A DNA stretch of 64,000 bases from Octopus vulgaris (taxonomy: Eukaryota), in contig OX597823.1 in the NCBI GenBank assembly GCA_951406725.2, forward strand, positions 38,130,001-38,194,000. The letters run 5' to 3'. The notes beneath the pieces are model-generated. The model was not told the origin of the DNA, did no database searches, and saw only the letters and a list, made by a program, of their open reading frames with translations. Shown piece after piece: positions 2,869 to 62,690 of this stretch (positions within the stretch are counted from its first letter, which is position 1; the number at the start of each line of letters is the position of its first letter). A program made the translations under genes and the position numbers.

Positions 2869-4515
2869 GTGCCGAATGTTGACCCAACAGAGGGACCAGC
2901 TATCCGAGTTGACAGTTCCTTGGTAGTTAAGGCAATTAGAAGCATGAAGACAGGGAAAGCCCCAGGCCCATCAGGAATCACTGCAGAGATGCTCAAAATA
3001 TCCGGTAGTGTCGGCTATAGCCTAGTCACCCGTATAGTTAATCAGGTGATACACAAAGGAGTCATACCCAATGACTGGTGTAGCAGCATAATAGTCAACT
3101 GCTACAAAGGTAAAGGTGACGCCCTAGATACAAATAATTACAGAGGTATCAAGTTGTTGGATCAGGTAATGAAGGTTACGGAGAGGGTCATAGCCCAACT
3201 AATTAGAGAGAGAGTTAGTTTAGATGAGATGCAGTTTGGGTTCGTGCCAGGGAAAAGTACCACTGATGCTATATTCCTGGTAAGGCAGCTGCAGGAGAAA
3301 TACCTAGCCAAAGATAAGCCCCTGTACCTGGCTTTTGTTGACATGGAGAAAGCCTTCGACAGGGTCCTCCGATCCCTTATCTGGTGGTCAATGAGGAAAC
3401 TAGGGATAGATGAATGGTTAGTGAGAGCTGTGCGAGCCATGTACATGGACGCTGCTAGTAAGGTGAGGGTTGGCAACGAGTACAGTGAAGAATTCCGGGT
3501 AGAGGTAGGGGTCTACCAAGGCTCAGTCCTCAGCCCCCTCCTATTTATCATAGTCCTCCAGGCAATAACGGAGGAATTCAAGACAGTATACCCCTGGGAG
3601 CTCCTCTATGCTGATGACCTTGCTCTAATTGCTGAGTCACTATCAGAACTGGAGGAGAAATTTCAGGTGTGGTAGCAAGGATTAGAATTGAAGGGCCTGA
3701 GAGTCAATCTAGCTAAAACCAAAGTCCTAATAAGTAGGAAGGTAGACAAATCACAAACACCTTCAGATAGATGGCCCTGCTCGATCTGTAGAAAAGGTGT
3801 AGGTAGAAACTCTATAAGATGCACCAAGTGTAAGCTATGGACACATAAGAGGTGCAGCAATGTCAAAGGAAGGCTAACTAGGAAGATAGTTTTTGTATGT
3901 GGCAGATGCTCAGGAGCAATAAACACCAAAAATGCTCTGAGACCAACTTCTGCCACTTTCCAGGGAGAAAAACTAGAAATAGTTGATAGCTTTCGTTACG
4001 TAGGTGACCAAGTCTGTAGCCGGGGCAGGTGTGCTGAAAGTGTAACTGCTAGAGTAAGAATAGCTTGGGCAAAGTTCAGAGAGCTCTTACCTCTGCTGGT
4101 GACAAAAGGCCTCTCGCTCAGAGTAAAAGGCAGACTGTATGACACGTGTGTACGAACAGCCATGCTACATGGCAGTGAAACATGGGCTGTGCCTGCTGAG
4201 GATATGCATAAGCTCACAAGAAATGAAGCCAGTATGCTCCGCTGGATGTGTAATGTCAGTGTTCATACTCGACAGAGTGTAAGTACCTTGAGAGAAAAGC
4301 TGGACCTAAGAAGCATCAGATGTGGTGTGCAAGAGAGACGTTTGCACTGGTATGGTCATGTGGCAAGAATGGATGAAGATAGTTGTGTGAAAAAGTGCCA
4401 CACCCTAGCAGTTGAGGGAACCTGTGGAAGAGGCAGACCCAGGAAAACCTGGAACGAGGTGGTGAAGCACGACCTTCGAACTTTAGGTCTCACTGAGGAA
4501 ATGACTAGAGACTGA
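2869..4515 (+). pseudogene. RTE reverse transcriptase ORF (partial, interrupted by a nonsense codon at 3673-3675)
   Basis: YADD catalytic motif and a continuous frame across the TAG. The homologous copy at ~6900 reads WK at this position. Confidence 0.9.
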
Positions 4516-5429: not shown

Positions 5430-7974
5430 TCATCATCATCATCATCATCGTTTAACATCTGCTTTCCATGCTGGCATGGGTTAGATGCTTTGACTGAGCC
5501 AGAGGCTGCACCAGGCTCAATCTGGTCTGGCAAAGTTTCTACAGCTGGATGCCCTTCCTAATGCCAACCATTCCGAGAGTGTAGTGGGTACTTTTTACAT
5601 GCCACTGGCATGAGGGCCAGTCAGACGGTTCTGGCAATGACCACGCTCATGCTCAAAAGGTGTTTTTACGTGCTACCTGCATGGGAGCCAGACCAGCGGC
5701 ACTTGCAACAACTACGCTCAAGTGTTGCTTTTCATGTACTGGTAAGGCGGCGCTGGCTACGATCATGCTTGAATGATACTTTTCACATGTCACAGGCACA
5801 GGAGCCAATCCGTGGCCCTGGCAATGGTCTTGCTGAGATGTGCTTTTAATGTTCCATTGGCACAAGTGCCAATCAGACGGTACTGTCATCAGCTACGTCA
5901 GTGATTTTGGTTTGTTTACACTTGCCTCAATAGGTCTTCACAAGCAAAGTTCATTGTCCAATGAATGAGGGGTATTCATAAATGAGCTGATTACACCAAC
6001 TGGCATAGGCTATGGGCTATGGTTTCACTTGGCTTGTTGGGTCTTCTCAAGCACAGCATATCTCCAAAGGTCCCGGTCATTGCCTCGGTAAGGCCCAATG
6101 TTCGAAGGTCGTACTTCACCTCATCCCAGGTTTTCCTGGGTCTACCTCTTCCACGGTTTCCCTCGACTGTTAGGGTGTGACACTTTTTCACACAGCTGTC
6201 CTCATTCATTTGCAACACATGACCATACCAGTGCAGTCGTCTCTCTTGCACATCACATCTGATGCTTCTTAAATCCAACTTTTCTCTCAGGGTGCTTGCA
6301 CTCTGTTGTGTATGCACACTGATATTACACATCCAGTGGAGCATACTGGCTTCATTTCTTGCGAGCTTATGCATATCCTCAGCAGTCATGGCCCATGTTT
6401 CACTGCCATGTAGCATGGCTGTTCATACACACGCGTCATACAGTCTGCCTTTTACTCTGAGCGAGAGGCCTTTTGTCACCAGTAGAGGTATGAGCTCTCT
6501 GAACTTTGCCCAAGCTATTCTTACTCTAGCAGTTACACTTTCAGCACACCCGTCCCCGCTACTGATTTGGTCACCTAGGTAACGGAAGCTATCGACTATT
6601 TCTAGTTTTTCTCCCTGGAAAGTGGCAGAAGTTGGTCTCAGAGCATTTTCAGTGTTTATTGCTCCTGAGCATCTGCCACATACAAAAACTATCTTCCTAG
6701 TTAGCCTTCCTTTGACATTGCTGCACCTCTTATGTGTCTATAGCTTACACTTGGTGCATCTTATAGAGTTTCTACCTACACCTTTTCTACAGATCGAGCA
6801 GGGCCATCTACCTGAAGGCGTTTGTGATTTGTCTACCTTCCTACTTATTAGGACTTTGGTTTTAGCTAGATTGACTCTCAGGCCCTTCGATTCTAATCCT
6901 TACTTCCACACCTGAAACTTCTCCTCCAGTTCTGATAGTGACTTAGCAATTAGAGCAAGGTCATCAGCATAGAGGAGCTCCCAGGGGTATACTGTCTTGA
7001 ATTCCACTGTTATTGCTTTGAGAACTACGATGAATAAAAGGGGACTGAGGACAGATCCTTGGTGGACCCCTACATCTACTCGGAATTCTTCACTGTACTC
7101 GTTGCCAACCCTCACCTTACTGACAACATTCATCTATCCTTAGTTTCCAGATAAGGGATTGGGGGTCCCTGTCAAAGGCTTTCTCCATGTCAATGAAAGT
7201 CAGGTACAGGGGTTTATCTTTGACTAGGCATTTCTCCTGCAGCTGTCTTACCAGAAATATAGCATCAGTGGTGCTTTTCCCTAGCACGAACCCAAACTGC
7301 ATCTCATCTAGATGACTCTCTTCTTAATTAGTTGGGCTATGACCCTCTCTGTGACCTTCATTACCTGATCCAACAACTTGATACCTCTGTAATTATTTGT
7401 ATCTTAGGCATCACATTTACCTTTGTAGCAGCTGACTATGGTGTTGCTACACCAATCATTGGGTATGACTCCTTCATGTATCACCTGGTTAACTATATGG
7501 GTGACTAGACTATAGCCGACACCACCAGATATTTTAAGCATCTCTGCAGTGATTCCTGATGGGCTGGGGGCTTTCCCTGTCTTTGTACCCTTAGTTGCTT
7601 TATCTACCAAGGTACTGTCAATTTGGATAGCTGGTCCCTCTGTTGGGTCGACATTCAGCAGACTCTCTTTCTCCCATTCATTCTCTTTATTGAGCAATCT
7701 TTCATAGTGGCGTCTCCAAACCTCTCTCTTTGCAGCCTCATTTAGTGTAAGAGAACCATCATCCATACGGACACATTTCTCTCCTACAACATCACGATTC
7801 TCTCTCATGCACTGTCTTGCAACACGAAATACCTCAAGTCTTTAGTTCTCACAGTGCAGAACATTGGCAAATTTTTTCTTATCTGCTTCCCCTCTGGCTA
7901 AATAAACCTGTCTCCTAGCTTCCCTTCTGGCAGTCTGATACAATTCCCTGCTACCACCATTCTTCCAGTCTTTC

Positions 7975-25729: not shown

Positions 25730-26330
25730 AATGATGGTGGTAGCAAGGGATGCAATCTTGTTGAAGATCTCTCTCTATCCACTGATGGTTTAAAGATTCT
25801 TCTATTTATGCCTGTGACTATGTTTCTAATTATAGCTGGGACATGGTTGGAGTTTGTGTGTATATATACACAGTTTTCTTGTATGGGTAGCACTTGTCCA
25901 TCTTCAGGCCTAGAGTTGACCTTCAAAAGAGTGATGGTAACTGTTATAGATAGGTTGAATTCTTAGAAGATCTCTGTCAGATCCTTCCTGAACTTGTCCA
26001 TGGAGTTGTTATTCATATAACTTAAGATTCACTGACCATCGTCTCTGTACAGAGCCAAGATAATATTAGTTCACAATGATTCCTGCTGGGTGAATACGTA
26101 AGGTGACTCACTGTTTGACATATCTATAGGGAGCAAAGACTTCCAGAAAGTTTAACTGACAAGCATTGTTCATTTTACACCATATGAGAAGAAAAAGCCA
26201 TGAGCATTTGGTGACAACCAGGAAATTAAATGGAACAAGAAGTTTGGGAAGATATAGAGAGAAGATAAGAGATGGCCTTAACCAGTTGTCTTCAGAAGGA
26301 CCACTAATGTAATAATGTACCAAGTTGTGG
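25730..26330 (+). mobile_element. Very decayed RTE-like LINE RT fragment
   Basis: Residual QGCNL, GST and GTRSLGRYREKIRDGL motifs in shifting frames. Confidence 0.4.
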
Positions 26331-52510: not shown

Positions 52511-53169
52511 AGATGTGTGTGTGTATATATATATATGTATATATATGTATAAATATATGTATGCATGTATATATGTGTATATATATATAGGTACATATAT
52601 ATGTATGTATGTATGTATTTATACAGATGTATATGTATAGATGTATATACAGAGATTTATATGTATATATATATATTATATCTTTTTAATTGTCTTGCTT
52701 GCTTTACGTTCTGGCATTTGCGGAATTTTCTTGAGAACAACTTTTCTCAGTGGTCAGACCATATGGGGTCTACATTTAGCATATTTAAAATCTACCGAAC
52801 AACCGGGTAGATTTTAAAAAACGTCTAAACAATCATTTTTCCTCTTTTAGGCTCAGACATAAGGCAGGTTGCACAACATTATGTAGTAAAATTTGGGAAC
52901 TAAAAACAAATAATATAGAATTCAACATAAAATGGGATATAGTTAGAAGAGCGCAACCTTATAGAAATAGTAGGGATGGTTGTCAACTTTGTTGTATGGA
53001 AACTTATGAAATTTTGAAACATCAGAGTAATACAAATCTGTTGAATAACCGTTTGGAGCTGTGAGTGTCTTGTATACATCGTACGACCCGAACGTTTAAA
53101 TACTTTAAATAATAATTTTGTGAATATTCCTATATTTTTCAAATTTTAATTCTTTATAACCAAATAAGA

Positions 53170-53650
53170 AGGAATATACCATACTAGCTTTCAATTTAAC
53201 ATTTATAGATGACTAAAATAACTTCACTGCAAACTTAGAATTGAATTCTTTTTTCTAAAATTAATCTGTATGAATCTAAATAGTTGGAATCCTAAATAGT
53301 ATGAATCCCAAATAGTAGGAATAATAAACAGTATGAATCATATGTCCCTAAAGAAACTATTCAGTTCACCTTGACTATCTCACTTCCATTTCTTAATATA
53401 TAATTAGTCTAAGATATCTTTACAAAATATATTTAACCAAATAGAAACGAATATACCATACTGGTTTTAGGTTAATACCCATAAATGATTAAATAACTTC
53501 ATTGCAAACTTAGAATTAAATTCTTTTATTTTATTATGTTCTCCAATACTAAGTAGTATTAATCCTATGTCCCTAGGGAAACTATTTGGTTCATCTTGAT
53601 TATCTCACTCCCATTTCTTAATATATAATTAACCTAAGATATTTTTACCT
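53170..53650. repeat. Diverged tandem duplication (units of about 280 and 200 bp) in the PLE 3' UTR
   Basis: gaatataccatact...gcaaacttagaatt at 53172 and 53450. atgtcccta...tatctcact..catttcttaatatataatt at 53343 and 53568. Confidence 0.75.
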
Positions 53651-54444
53651 AACCAATTAACTTTTATCCGCAGGTAGTAAATTTTATTTCCAATAGATCC
53701 TATATTTTAATTCATTAATATCAACTCACTATCCATGAAATTTGAATAATTTACTCTTCTAAATTACCTCTCTTCATATTATAAAATATGTCGCCTTCTA
53801 CTAAACCTATGAATATCTTCCTTCTTTGATTTTCCCTCTTCCATCTCTCTTAGTATATATTTTGATCCCTAATATGTTCACTTGACTAATAAGGCTTTTC
53901 CCCTCAGTTAATAAGTACTATGCCTACTCATAATAAGTGATAGTCTCTTTCTCCAAATTTGAATAAATTTTAGATTTATATTTTTTCCTTTATTCTAACG
54001 TGTCAAAGTACTTGGAACTTATAGACCAACTGTTGTGATGATGTGCATAGGGCTTGTAAGGTCTCTGCATTCTCTGTGAATGTTATTGTGACCATTTGGC
54101 ATTGATCTAGTTCTCCTAACACCAAATCTGTTCATCAAATAGTAGTAATTGGCATTTAGTTGTGACAATGCTGTCTTCTACATAAATTCCTTATATGGAG
54201 CTATGACATCCCCTTTACCCCATTTCTATAATTCTATAAATCTTTATTGTCTCTTTTCACTTGTTCTTCCCTCTCAGAACCTTACAGTAGTCTGGAACAA
54301 CTGAATCTTAGTCAGTCAGTTGATGGGCTCCACTACATCAAATGTTCTTAAAATTTAAATCCACATCTTTGTCTATGTATCTACCTTCTCTATAATGTTG
54401 CCACTTGATATGAAAATTTTTGTATTAATGGAAAACCTCTATAA

Positions 54445-54530
54445 TTGGCTGATGAGTGCTCAGCATTTTAAAACTGTTGTAATACTTACAACATTTAATA
54501 AAATGATGTAGTACAAAACGATCGTACCAA
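54445..54530 (+). ncRNA. Type I hammerhead ribozyme motif (G12>A)
   Basis: ttgg-CTGATGA-gtgct...agtac-AAAAC-gatc-GTA-ccaa, with an apical hairpin tgttgtaa/ttacaaca. Confidence 0.75.
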
Positions 54531-54561
54531 ATTACCGGAGTCAATCTTGTTGCTTATTTTG

Positions 54562-54592
<31 letters not shown>

Positions 54593-56839
54593 TATCCTGA
54601 AAATAGGCGAGAGCTGGGTATGCTCACTATAGAAAATACATGGTAGTTCTCAGAAGGATTTCAACTGAAACTCCAAATTTTTCATCAAAAGTAAGGCCCA
54701 CACCGTCAAGAGCAGCTGTAAGAGAGATCCAAACCAACCTGGTATGGAGATAGCAATGGAGATAGGCTTGATATAAATATATTTACATGGAGCACTAAAT
54801 ATAAAGAATAAAAGTACAGAATGAAATATGAAAAAATATGTAATTTCTTAACTCAACAGCTGTTTTAGGAAGTTCAGAGCTTCATAATCATAATAACCAT
54901 AAATTGCAAATGAAATGTACAGAACGTTGTGGGTATGTAACTAGTAATCAGTCACATGAAGATATAACAATAAATCCAACTCCCCTCATCAAAAGAAGAT
55001 TGGCAAATGTGGTTCTTATAGTAGTGATAGCGATGGGTAAAGGGAGAGAGGAAGTAGAATGAGATCAAGGGTGAGGAAGGGGAGGAAGGATAACTTCTAG
55101 AACATAAGAAAGGAAAAAGGATAGAATAGAAGAAACAAAGAGAAGAGAGAAGGGAAAAAGATAGAGTTAAACTCATTCTAGTGAAAGGGGATCTCACAAG
55201 TGGTAAGGATACTGTTAAGCAGATCATAAATCAGTTAGGAATGTCAGCTGACCAGACAAAGAGGCAGGAAGAGATAAGTTTTGAGGTAAAGGAGTAGGGG
55301 TGGGGGTATCAGAAAAGAAAAGTATGTTGAGAGAAAGAGAGTATGATACAAGGAGAGGTGAAATTGGTACTTATTTGAATAAAAAGTGAAGAGTCCTCGT
55401 AACTTAGCAGTTCAGCAAAGAGACTGATAGAATAAGTACTAAGCTTGCAAAGAATAAGTCCTGGGGGCGATTTGGTTGACTAAAGGCAGTGCTCCAGCAT
55501 GGCCACAGTAAGCGATCCAGTCACAATTAGCAGGCATTATAAAGACTTTATAATGAACAAATGTGGAATAAAACATATGTTTACATGAGAATATTACATC
55601 AGAGTCCCTACTGACTAATGAAGTATTATAATGGTATAGAACTATGGGTGGTTCCCTGCAACATAAATTACAAGTGAAATAGTTAGCATTGTATGGGATA
55701 CCCTCATGAACTATGAAGCAGGACAAGGTATTGAGAATGTCCTGGGATTTGAAGGGGTGTATGTATGTAGCTAAGAAAGTTTAAAGGTTCCATTTGAAAA
55801 AGAACTCAAGTAAGCCTGGTAGCTATGCTTGAAATCAAAAGTGCCACCAATGTAGATCTTAGCCTGATGGGAATGTGGGGTTATGACTCGAAATTTATAT
55901 ACCAAATTATAGCATAAGCAAAATCCACCTAACAGGCATTGTCAGACTGCTTTTGATTTTGTGCCTGTTCAGTCAGGTCTAACTTGATGGTTAAGCAATA
56001 ACAAGGACAAAAGCATCTCCATCAAATCAACTATGGTTTTGTCATACACAAATCTGACTAAAATATAAAAGATGGTTAATAAGTGATATGGTTTTTATAC
56101 TTCAGTCAATGGCGTATTATTGACTTTTATTAATATCCAGAATAGTTGAATTGAAATTGTCATTTGTACAAAACTATTTTGACATCTTTAATCTGAATTG
56201 ATGTGGCTATCATTATTTATTTATTTATTTATTTATTTTATTTATTTATTTTCCAATTTATCTTTTGTGAGTTCATCTTTCAACAATAATGTGTTAGCAA
56301 ATATTAATGAAAATGTCCTGACATTTAAAACAGAAAATCTATAGACTTTTATATACATATATCGTCATCATCATCATCATCATTGTCGTTGTTGTTGTCA
56401 TTGTTGTCATTATCATAATTGTCATCATCATCTTCATGAATATTATCATCATCATCAATTTTGTTGTTGTCGACATCATCATCATCATCATCATTTCCTT
56501 CTTTATGTCCACCTTTCTATATCTGGTTAAAGGTGACGGGTCTTCTCCAGTCCTGCATTGTGCCGCTTTTTTTCTTCTGGCACTATTGTGAGTCACATCA
56601 TCCCAAGATCACAATTCACCACTTCTGTCTATGATTTTCTTCTACTTATTTGAAAGCCTCTGTCTGCTTCGAAAAGTGACAGAATGGGTTGTGTGGAGTG
56701 AGTGTACCTCACAGAGTGAGTCACCTTATTTACATATGTTCACTGGAGTTGAAGAATATGCAACATTAAGAAAGTGGCTGTCCAATTTGGTGGCCACACA
56801 GGGTAGCCAAAAACTTTATGTTTAATATATATATATATG

Positions 56840-57100
56840 TAATCAAAAAATAAGCAACAAGAATGAATCCGGTAATTTAGTACAATTGTTTCATACTACA
56901 ACATTTTATTAAAAGCTGTAAATATTACAGCAGATTTAAGATGCTGAGTAATCTTCAGCTAATTTATATAGATTTTCCAATAATATAAAAGTTTTCAAAT
57001 CAATTAATGACATCTTAGGGAAGGTAAATATACAGATAAAGATGTAGATATGAAACTTAGGAACATGAGGTCGTGTGGTTCAGATGCTAACTGACCAAAA
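56840..57100 (-). mobile_element. Solo PLE terminal repeat homologous to 54310-54565
   Basis: The reverse complement aligns along ~250 bp with 54310-54565. Confidence 0.75.
56877..56962 (-). ncRNA. Type I hammerhead ribozyme motif, core nucleotides intact
   Basis: The minus strand reads ttag-CTGAAGA-ttact...agtat-GAAAC-aatt-GTA-ctaa. The first pair of stem II is mismatched. Confidence 0.75.
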
Positions 57101-57479
57101 GTTTGTTTATAACTGACTGCTGTAAGAAAATTTCTTTAGTTATAACTAACTGCTGATGATGACACACATATGTATATGTGTGAATATACATTTGTGTGTA
57201 TGTGTCTCATTTTTTCTATGTATGTATGAGGATATATATGTATGTATGTTTATTTTATTTATTTATTAATTCTCAGTGGCTGTTTATTTATTTCTATTAT
57301 ATTCTATTGTCTGCATTTCATATGTTGTATTGATTGTTTGTGTATGATATTTGTATATATATTTGATATTGTAACATTTCATATTGTACTACCATGACCT
57401 TCACCACCACCACCACCATTCCAAAAGCCATTATTATAGCTACCTTGTTATCTTCAGTTGTCATATTTAGAATAAACAA

Positions 57480-57863: not shown

Positions 57864-58546
57864 ATGGCTTAGAATTCTTGGGCTGGGTCAAAAATGAAGT
57901 CAAAAATGGTTTTCTTGGTATATTGTTTCCTTACTGAAATCTATAAGGACCCACTCACCCATCCTTGATTGTCAGTCCCTATTCTCTCTTTATCTACCAT
58001 CTAGTACCTTGAGAGTAAATCCTGATATCTCATTTCCACCATTCTTTTTCCATTTCCAGCTGGAGTAGTCATATGTATCCACTACAATAAGACACCTGTG
58101 CCCATCCCTCTCAACACCTGACATAAAGCTACCTGTTTCAATATTGCACTCCCACTTCGTGAAGGGTTCTTGCCTTGCAAGTTACTTGGTGACTTCAGTT
58201 CTGCTGGTGCAACATAAAAAGCACTCAGCACACTTCAGTGTTGGTGGTCTCATGTGGGTTGGTGTTAACAGGGTTGAATGGGTTATTTTTACTGTAGATC
58301 CTTGTCTCTTCAAGAAGACCTGCATAATAAAGAAACTAGTAGCAGCAGCAGCAGTAGTAGTAGTACCTGCCCCACCACCATCAGCACTACTACTATCACA
58401 AGAATCTGCATTTCCTACAGCAGCACTCCTCCACTACCTACCCCTACACCCACCAGCATTAATCTCATAACCAGTAATAACAGTAAAACCACTGCTATCA
58501 CATACATACATACATACATACATACATACATACATACATACATACA

Positions 58547-59710
58547 TCAAAACAAATCAAAATAGATGAACATCAATGGAATTTGTATCTTTGTGGTACC
58601 AGTGCCGGTGGCACACAAGAAAACCATCCGAACGTGGCCGTAGCCAGTACCGCACCGACTGGCCTCCGTGCTGTGGGCACGTAACAAACACCATCCGATC
58701 GTGGCCGTTCGCCAGCCTCTTCTGGCACCTGTGTCGGTGGCACATAAAAACACCATCCGAAGACCCGGCAAGACTAGTCAGGCCATAACCTGTGGCCCCT
58801 ACCTGGGACGTAGTCAGTCCACCTGTGCATACCTTCCTTCTTGTGACACTTGTGAAGACCTGTTGAGGCAAGTGAAAATCAAATCAAATCAAAACAAATC
58901 AAAATAGATGAACATCAATGGAATTTGTATCTTTGTGGTACCAGTGCCGGTGGCACACAAGAAAACCATCCGAACGTGGCCGTAGCCAGTACCGCATCGA
59001 CTGGCCTCCGTGCTGTGGGCACGTAACAAACACCATCCGATCGTGGCCATTCGCCAGCCTCATCTGGCACCTGTGTCGGTGGCACATAAAAACACCATCC
59101 GAAGACCCGGGAAGACTAGTCAGTCCATAACCCGTGGCCCCTACCTGGGACGTAGTCAGTCCACCTGTGCATACCTTCCTTCTTGTGACACTTGTGAAGA
59201 CCTGTTGAGGCAAGTGAAAATCAAAACAAATCAAAATAGATGAACATCAATGGAATTTGTATCTTTGTGGTACCAGTGCCGGTGGCACACAAGAAAACCA
59301 TCCGAACGTGGCCGTAGCCAGTACCGCATCGACTGGCCTCTGTGCTGTGGGTACGTAACAAACACTATCCGATCGTGGCCGTTCGCCAGCCTCATCTGGC
59401 ACCTGTGTCGGTGGCACATAAAAACACCATCCGAGCGTGGCCGTCTGCCAGCCTCGTCTGGCACCTGTGTCGGTGGCACATAAAAAACACCATCCGAGCG
59501 TGGCCGTTCGCCAGCCTCGTCTGGCACATAAAATCACCCACTAGACTCTCGGAGTGGTTGGCGTTAGGAAGGGCATCCAGCTGTAGAAACACTGCCAGAT
59601 CTGACTGGCCTGGTGCAGCCTTCGGGCTCCCCAGACCTCAGTTGAACCGTCCAACCCATGCTAGCATGGAAAGCGGACGTTAAATGATGATGATGATGAT
59701 GATGATGATG
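58547..59710 (+). mobile_element. RTE 3' UTR amplified as three tandem units, then the normal tail and (GAT)n
   Basis: atggaatttgtatctttgtggtaccagtgccggtggcac at 58576, 58918 and 59250 (periods 342 and 332). Homologous to 4540-5110. Confidence 0.9.
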
Positions 59711-59920
59711 ATATATATTGTCAAAATAACATATTTCAGAAAAAGAAGCACACTTTAAAGAATAGAGCAGTAAGCATTAACTTTAACTTTATGTTTAATA
59801 TATATATATATATATATATTGATAAAACGGTAAGATAACAAAAGAAAGAAAGAGACCTCAATATTATGTAAATAGAGGAAATTTATCTATACAATAATAT
59901 GTTACATTACTCGGTAGTCA

Positions 59921-59983
59921 AGATAAAACTCTGAGTTTCAGATGCCGAAGTGGAAATCCACAACACCATCTCTTCGGTTATCT
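59921..59983 (-). ncRNA. Type I hammerhead ribozyme motif with variant CCGAAGA core
   Basis: The minus strand reads agataa-CCGAAGA-gatg...catc-t-GAAAC-tcaga-GTT-ttatct, with a perfect 6-bp stem I. Confidence 0.75.
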
Positions 59984-60162
59984 GGCTATTTGAAAACGCT
60001 ATGAAAAAATACCGTTAAATAAAGGGAAATTACTGTGTTATAACTCTGCTTGCCTTCGTACTTATACATCGCTCGCATTTTTCGTCATAAAAATTATATA
60101 AAAATACATAAAAAATATATAAAAATATATAAATTCTTGGGACATAACATAGAAAGCATGTT

Positions 60163-60784
60163 CTATCTGTTTTCTTTAGGGGACCAAAAACGTAACAGAA
60201 ATTTAGTCACATGTGGGCATGATCCGAAAAGCTCTGTCCTTGTATTTAGACATGTAGTAGGGTCTAAGCTGCTTTTTCAGATAAGCCATCTCTCCATGTC
60301 GCATAGACCGCACCTTCCGCTACCGTTGGTATAGGGCTTACATCTGGCCAAAATCTTCCATTGTATGTTATAATCGACACCTTTATCTCTTAAAGACCAA
60401 ATATGATTAGATAATTCTGTCGCTTTTCTTTTGTTCCAGTGCCTAAAGCTCAAAGTGTGGTTATTGAACCTGGCCTTGAAATTACCCTCTGTAAGGCCCA
60501 CGTATTTCTTCGTCGAAATGGTGTCTTTAGTGGTTATAGAGTTTACGGTAGCTTCATATATGATGGTCTTGGACATGCAAGCTCCATTTAGCGGGCACAA
60601 TTCTTTATTCCTGCATGAACAGCTGTTTTCTTGTGTTTTTTGTATGTTATGTTTGATTATGTTTTTAAAATTGGTAGTTGAACTAAAACTAATTTTTAAA
60701 TTGTGTCTATTGAAGAGTTTCCTATAAGTATGGTTAACTGGAAAATGTCTATCTATCAGTGCTAGGAAATATTTATCTATATTG
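60163..60784 (-). pseudogene. PLE GIY-YIG endonuclease coding segment with one in-frame TGA (60277-60279)
   Basis: The frame continues past the TGA as KSSLDPTTCLNTRTELFGSCPHVTKFLLRFWSPKENR*. Confidence 0.85.
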
Positions 60785-62129: not shown

Positions 62130-62690
62130 TTGAGTGAGAGAGCAGTGCATGCCATCAAAGTAACACTGGGGTACAATTATATGAAGCCCAATATACCCAT
62201 CAAAACTACCTGTCTGATAAGGGTACACCAGGCACATGCAGCACAACCACATGTGCATGACATGGTGATCTTATATCAAGATAAACAGTGCATGCATGAC
62301 CTTGCAGGTAGGGCCCAGTTAGAATTTTCGTCTGGTTGAGTAGCCATCCTACTCAGAAGGTCCCTGAATAAGGTTTGTTTAAGGATGATGAATGAAACAC
62401 CCATGTTTCCAGAGGTGAATTATCCAAACCTCCAAGAATCCCTCTCAACACATGGCTATGATGCTGCCCCACTACTTCTGCTCGTGATCAGAGATACCCA
62501 TATCGTCAGCCACTAAGGGACATGCTCAACTGGATAAGGTCAAACAACTGACAAGCAAATCTGTGGTATTGAGCAGAATATTTGCTGTAGCCTATTTTTT
62601 ATACCAAGACAAAACAATGTACATGATAACACTTCCAATTCATTAAGATCAGAAGCTATGAGAACCACTGCCTAGTATTGCATCAGGGAA
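62130..62690. mobile_element. Unclassified ~560-bp insert flanked by (TAT)n
   Basis: A GC-richer block bounded by TAT repeats on both sides, with no recognisable ORF. Confidence 0.35.

Follow-up and report, generated by a model that had tools for sequence, protein, structure and literature searches.

Minimal type I hammerhead ribozymes have been described in metazoan Penelope-like retroelements, with pseudo-LTRs, a short stem I and a palindromic stem and loop III, and a model of cleavage as a dimer has been published for them (Cervera and de la Pena 2014, PMC4209133; reviewed in PMC6765202, citing Lunse et al.). They occur as many families per genome that differ by compensatory changes, mostly as single truncated copies, and they cleave weakly even as dimers (PMC4209133). 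The Hydra clade, a group of Penelope-like elements with a C-terminal endonuclease that includes Hydra-1_Obim (Craig et al. 2021, PMC8557442), combines a reverse transcriptase (RT) with a C-terminal GIY-YIG domain and is characterized there by a CxCX5C linker, CxxC and CxH motifs, DKT and RW(K/R), the absence of CCHH, (TA)n targets, and, at the 3' end in sense orientation, a type I hammerhead. In Anolis, the hammerhead of a Penelope-like element is reported to require the element protein, and uncut RNA was the template for reverse transcription in vitro (PMC11167929). In the axolotl retrozyme HHR_Amex2 (Cervera and de la Pena 2020, PMC7229834), a tandem repeat that is non-coding and in which loop 1 contacts loop 2, stem III has 2 bp capped by a tetraloop, and the basal pair of stem II is a U·U. 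The literature has yet to settle what the hammerhead does for Penelope-like elements (PMC8557442, PMC11167929).

The octopus elements described here, found from a 64-kb window (the whole stretch of DNA that was analysed), share the pseudo-LTRs, short stem I, palindromic stem III and multiplicity of families of the first of these systems and the domain order, protein motifs, targets and 3' hammerhead of the second. Each of the two motifs in the window is a type I hammerhead that lies at the 3' end of a Penelope-like retroelement with Hydra-clade traits; the two insertions are independent, and both are truncated at the 5' end. The retroelement class and the dimer model are known; what differs from print is a long stem II with an embedded hexamer, the long arm being a variant and the hexamer a lead. 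The stem II insert measures 51-63 nt in three segments, versus 12-26 nt in 26 published Hydra motifs (our count; PMC8557442), and it folds into an arm in which about 20 bp are interrupted by internal loops, in contrast to the 6-8 bp of helix II in the hammerheads of PMC4209133. The units span 4.6-4.7 kb and have Asn-rich linkers, whereas Hydra-clade elements are generally shorter than 3 kb (PMC8557442). The hammerhead of Hydra-1_Obim differs in sequence, so that the octopus elements represent another family. HHR_Amex2 resembles them in its 2-bp stem III with tetraloop and its U·U, but the octopus elements code for protein and have no defined loop 1.

The two hammerheads are organized as follows, according to a descriptor scan and an alignment of both copies.
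54445-54530, plus strand: hammerhead copy A, 86 nt
54445-48/54527-30, plus strand: stem I of copy A
54449-55, plus strand: core CUGAUGA of copy A
54456-54514, plus strand: stem II of copy A, 59 nt
54515, plus strand: G12 of copy A, mutated to A
54524-26, plus strand: GUA of copy A, followed by the 3' strand of stem I; stem III is palindromic
56877-56962, minus strand: hammerhead copy B, 86 nt
56958-52, minus strand: core CUGAAGA of copy B
56892-88, minus strand: GAAAC of copy B; stem II is 59 nt with a U·U at its base
56883-81, minus strand: GUA of copy B; the predicted cut lies between 56881 and 56880

The initial annotation had placed two diverged hammerheads exactly at these positions, within homologous repeats that we find to extend over about 220-250 bp at 80-81% identity. 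On both strands of the window, the descriptor scan returned these copies and one unrelated candidate at 62509. Rfam at the gathering score gave no match in the 64-kb window, probably because of the length of stem II; that arm, already singled out as unusually long, has an insert of 59 nt in each copy and folds at z of about -3.4 to -4.4 relative to shuffles. All three double changes that had been proposed to preserve pairing were recovered: TTGG/CCAA in copy A versus TTAG/CTAA in copy B (stem I), GTTGTAA/TTACAAC versus GCTGTAA/TTACAGC (apical stem II), and ACGATCGT versus ACAATTGT (stem III). They account for 6 of the 16 differences over 86 nt. By our reading of the fold, two others keep or gain a pair, three fall in loops or at N7, and two, read from fold and alignment, break pairing within stem II, in its AU-rich middle; two more convert the first stem II pair from G-C to U·U in copy B (10.1-11.1), and the last is the change of G12 to A in copy A (position 54515), which gives AAAAC. 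The broken pairs, the U·U and the G12 change are additions to the initial annotation.

The type I core (CUGANGA, GAAA, NUH; three helices, open at stem I) is present in copy B, whose CUGAAGA, GAAAC and GUA are intact as annotated, and in the majority of the family; copy A departs from it at G12. This residue is required for hammerhead catalysis, and copy A is likely inactive. The change is seen in 2 of the 30 best family A matches, one of them copy A itself, and all four sequencing runs compared at position 54515 have G there. Copy B may still cut if its minus strand is transcribed and a partner is present; a 92-mer identical to it makes up 9 of 107 collected rows, in which copy B is itself counted twice. 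We also considered its U·U as decay and rejected this, as it is shared by 22 of the 30 best B matches, by 22 of the 62 sampled copies that carry a 5' core, and by published motifs (14 of the 26 Hydra motifs tabulated in File S2 of PMC8557442, by our own count).

The host insertions comprise the following features.
52785..52805, minus strand: inverted 21-bp piece of duplicated element sequence, at the 5' truncation junction of copy A; its reverse complement matches endonuclease coding sequence there
52806..53112, plus strand: C-terminal half of a GIY-YIG endonuclease, family A, with CxxC, E, N and CxH motifs and one in-frame stop
53113..54444, plus strand: family A 3' UTR, collinear with other copies at 90-94%
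54531..54589, plus strand: U/GU-rich conserved tail of copy A, with the 3' end near 54563, then (AT)14
56825..56876, minus strand: (TA)n target and tail of copy B, with the 3' end near 56839
56963..57145, minus strand: family B 3' UTR remnant, 5'-truncated at 57145

The copy A insertion extends over 1.76 kb, from 52806 to about 54563, and its 5' end falls mid-frame in the endonuclease. In an intact ORF of family D, residues 880-980 match this endonuclease fragment at 62% identity, and of the 40 scored genome matches of the fragment the 39 besides itself are at 91-96%. The copy B insertion, of about 310 bp, consists of 3' UTR and tail and is 96% identical over 320 bp to a locus (L134) that has RT and endonuclease sequence upstream. 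Family B was considered as a 320-bp non-autonomous unit, and this was rejected, the common 320-bp start being the window copy's own truncation. Both families run upstream into RT-endonuclease ORFs, unlike non-LTR retrozymes, which are non-coding tandem repeats of 150-450 bp. Both window copies are inserted in (TA)n and are ordinary truncated insertions; their tail-to-tail placement on opposite strands, with an older repeat between them, marks them as independent. The initial annotation named neither the host elements nor this independence. This old dispersed repeat, at 54600-55000, has matches at 69-97%, the best long match being at 77%.

Full-length relatives were sought by an RT search of the genome, in which 150 of 5,523 candidates were scored and 20 regions were then fetched. 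Several of these contain open frames of 970-1091 aa with both an RT and, C-terminally, a GIY-YIG domain, so that a single ORF of the kind that defines endonuclease-positive (EN+) Penelope-like elements exists in the sister families, and the intact ORFs are bracketed by hammerheads of the same type 4.6-4.7 kb apart. Pseudo-LTR tandems, inverted 5' copies, 5' truncation and the tail, which also belong to EN+ elements, were all found. Matches in the Atlas, a single source, were to RT-like and GIY-YIG clusters; Pfam gave no family for two intact ORFs and the window fragment, and PDB sequences gave no match. The CxCX5C linker and the CxxC and CxH motifs beside conserved E and N, without CCHH, are present in families A, B-type, C, D, E and F. 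DKT was present in every family checked, and RWK in D and B2, with RWR in C, RWA in E and RWI in one B copy; this check covers family A without its N-terminus, which was not recovered in frame. The placement in the Hydra clade is by motifs, the reference Hydra proteins having been compared by eye. In families C and D (L116, L117, L120-L123, L135), many frames are intact at 970-1091 aa and contain long Asn-rich linkers, and the hammerheads are near-identical; both families consequently look recently active. Two fixed 3' ends lie about 100-120 nt apart (L264-L293; L032-L060), compared with 30-40 bp in print (PMC8557442), and each of the 30 family D copies whose match crosses the junction follows the reference to +148/149, the long end.

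Other repeats in the window and the genome were noted alongside. A third Hydra-type fragment, more distant, lies at 59800-60760 on the minus strand; its endonuclease is 36% identical to that of family D, it ends in (TA)n, and at 59927-59977 (minus strand) it contains a hammerhead-like motif with a CCGAAGA core and a 31-nt stem II. A decayed Penelope-like RT remnant at 25771-26055 (minus strand) is 30% identical to family D. An unrelated young repeat (L117:318-422, plus strand, and L246-L257) has a very stable 86-nt stem II and a palindromic AGCT loop III, with 40 scored matches at 93-100% and no RT or endonuclease match in 12 loci; one locus (L246) has two diverged motifs 1.4 kb apart. The window also contains a 1,020-bp inverted repeat at 92% (3442-4461 and 6117-7136) and, at 58546-59549, a tandem array whose units measure about 340 bp and contain 62-bp subunits.

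A motif pattern in which only GAAAC, GTH and the tail were fixed found at least 8,822 copies genome-wide, with 1 in the reversed control. Of the first 100 copies listed, 99 were recovered. Loop III is AATT in 41 of them, GATC in 28 and GATT in 26, these three making up 95 of the 99, with 4 other. A 5' core lies 50-66 nt upstream in 62; among these, the stem II insert is 57-60 nt in 59, and a 3-bp stem I is kept in 59. In the same sample of 99, 57 copies stop at the short end, in TA repeats, and 31 continue into the long tail.

The three paired differences between copies A and B are subfamily differences, not decay of the window copies. Among the 30 best matches per copy, a sample biased toward the query, 29 of 30 for copy B have AATT as loop III and 29 of 30 for copy A have GATC, and the apical pair is C-G in all 30 for copy B and T-A in all 30 for copy A. 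When 16 real copies, hand-picked as subfamily representatives, were aligned under a consensus structure drawn from the same rows, 89.6% of 394 cells were paired and both sides had changed in 13 of 25 pairs. The covariation score was 0.44, versus 0.22 for shuffled alignments (0/500) and at most 0.12 for slid ones, counts that are not probabilities, since the structure derives from these same hand-picked rows, which are related to one another. RNAalifold recovered the fold unaided, with 19 of the drawn pairs. Helices I, II and III covary, as a type I hammerhead should; within stem II this holds for the outer and apical helices, while the middle has no consistent pairing across families.

These observations bear on whether the paired differences could be purely mutational, arising by CpG decay and DNA-level repair between the inverted arms without any selection on RNA. 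The initial annotation had itself allowed that the stem III change might be a double CpG decay, and GATC to AATT is indeed two CpG transitions; moreover, all four kinds of single CpG decay occur in individual copies. Symmetric CpG decay would give GATT, which pairs by G·U, about as often as the non-pairing AATC (A·C), but among the 8,822 copies there are 2,049 of the former and 216 of the latter, a 9.5-fold excess that CpG decay alone does not explain. Likewise, G·U and U·G cells outnumber A·C and C·A cells by 38 to 8 in the 16 representatives, which points to sense-strand RNA, and several covarying pairs include double transversions (pairs 6-93, 21-73, 22-71, 23-70 and 38-52). A hammerhead tree built without the loop columns nests the GATC family C inside AATT families, and in an RT tree of 15 of 46 loci (12 distinct; those with 700-1300 nt of RT plus a matched hammerhead) it is family A that is nested among AATT families. 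The trees conflict on the placement of family A, so that recombination is possible. By parsimony, each of them requires AATT to have changed to GATC at least once, unless there was recombination, and a simple one-way CpG decay agrees with neither tree as built from these sequences. The suggestion of CpG decay is thus largely answered by the near-fixation of AATT among the best B matches, the double transversions and the nesting of GATC within AATT, and we regard a mutational origin of the pairing as highly improbable and already largely refuted. The accompanying proposal, that the RNA structure was under selection in the source subfamilies, is supported by subfamily fixation, covariation, the RNAalifold result, the G·U excess and the GATT and AATC counts. 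Selection would have acted on the master elements and not on the two window copies.

How the fold cleaves can be addressed by comparing its two possible states. Stem III, with 2 bp and a 4-nt loop, is too weak alone (+2.4 kcal/mol for the monomer hairpin in the first four rows), so two hammerheads would pair their palindromes and cut; the 8-bp self-duplex has -5.8 to -10 kcal/mol in all representatives. In the alternative, cleavage takes place in the monomer, where a tertiary contact or a protein site provided by the long stem II would stabilize the weak stem III, and the palindrome is incidental. The monomer fold lies just 0-5 kcal/mol above the minimum-energy fold, the Anolis hammerhead is protein-assisted (PMC11167929), and the axolotl motif reaches 22% cleavage as a monomer, but this same motif cleaves better as a dimer (PMC7229834). 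Furthermore, loop III keeps its self-complementarity as GATC, GATT, AATT and ATAT, and as AGCT in the unrelated family, and the central A-U pair of the palindrome is possible only in a dimer; we consider monomer cleavage unlikely. A different proposal, in which the window copies function as a pair or have been exapted by the host as a regulatory unit, could draw on their separation of only 2.3 kb. They belong, however, to different subfamilies on opposite strands, tail to tail, each with its own (TA)n and with an older unrelated repeat between them, an arrangement that allows no dimer of A with B from one transcript; the loss of G12 is private to copy A, and copies as numerous as these (at least 8,822 in 2.8 Gb) do come to lie close together. 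We give this proposal almost no credence.

We therefore favour dimeric cleavage, a fair reading of the palindrome that the initial annotation had offered and that is the published model for such hammerheads (PMC4209133): the two motifs are 3'-end hammerheads of sister families, and in the parent elements the fold probably self-cleaves after GUA as a dimer through the palindromic stem III. A tandem element would give an RNA with one hammerhead per pseudo-LTR, and two hammerheads would pair their 8-nt palindromes, cut after GUA and release a unit-length RNA. The template of the genomic copies appears to be an RNA that was left uncut or was ligated again. No family D insertion among 30 starts at the cut site; all span it, the nearest start being 13 nt upstream, which speaks against a cleavage role visible in insertions and agrees with an uncut template (PMC11167929). 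Across read-through junctions, in loci mostly gathered through the hammerhead itself, 80 of 82 have an exact GAAA(C/T)..GT upstream, and the other two are mutated, not truncated.

The middle of stem II contains a hexamer in both window copies.
54497..54502, plus strand: AATAAA in stem II of copy A, a possible poly(A) signal, 24 nt before the predicted cut site
56905..56910, minus strand: AATAAA of copy B, likewise in stem II and 24 nt ahead of its predicted cut site

All 16 representatives have AATAAA (12) or ATTAAA (4) at this place, 17-26 nt before the cut site, and so do 83 of the 99 sampled copies. The segment is the best-conserved part of the arm (0.84 versus 0.69-0.80), a hexamer turns up in 2-30% of shuffles, and its pairing is inconsistent (unpaired 0.01-1.0). 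A U/GU-rich conserved tract lies just past the cut site, and a hexamer followed by such a tract is the layout of a poly(A) site. Tentatively, the long stem II might exist to carry the poly(A) signal of the element, an idea to which we give a minority chance; other possible explanations of the hexamer are common descent, AT-rich sequence and a protein site. If it is a signal, polyadenylation and self-cleavage would compete over a single site, giving a fold-dependent switch between an RT-endonuclease mRNA, a cut and ligatable RNA, and an uncut template. By our count from the supplement of PMC8557442, 5 of 26 published Hydra rows have a hexamer directly 5' of stem I. In contigs of 7 sequencing runs whose RNA status was guessed, we saw no joints, no end pile-up and no poly(A) among 25 of 36 loose contig ends, a result that bears on neither expression nor polyadenylation. 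The literature searched gave no report of an octopus hammerhead with a long stem II or an embedded poly(A) signal, a point on which Repbase, Dfam and Lunse et al. may bear.

Together, these elements provide a natural mutational series of about 16 subfamilies and at least 8,822 copies, with young members that have intact ORFs, and this series shows that the pairing, including the self-complementary stem III, has been maintained by selection. As the long arm hides such motifs from Rfam, standard searches probably undercount them. Should the embedded hexamer prove to be a true poly(A) signal, it would offer a testable reason for the presence of a ribozyme in these retroelements.
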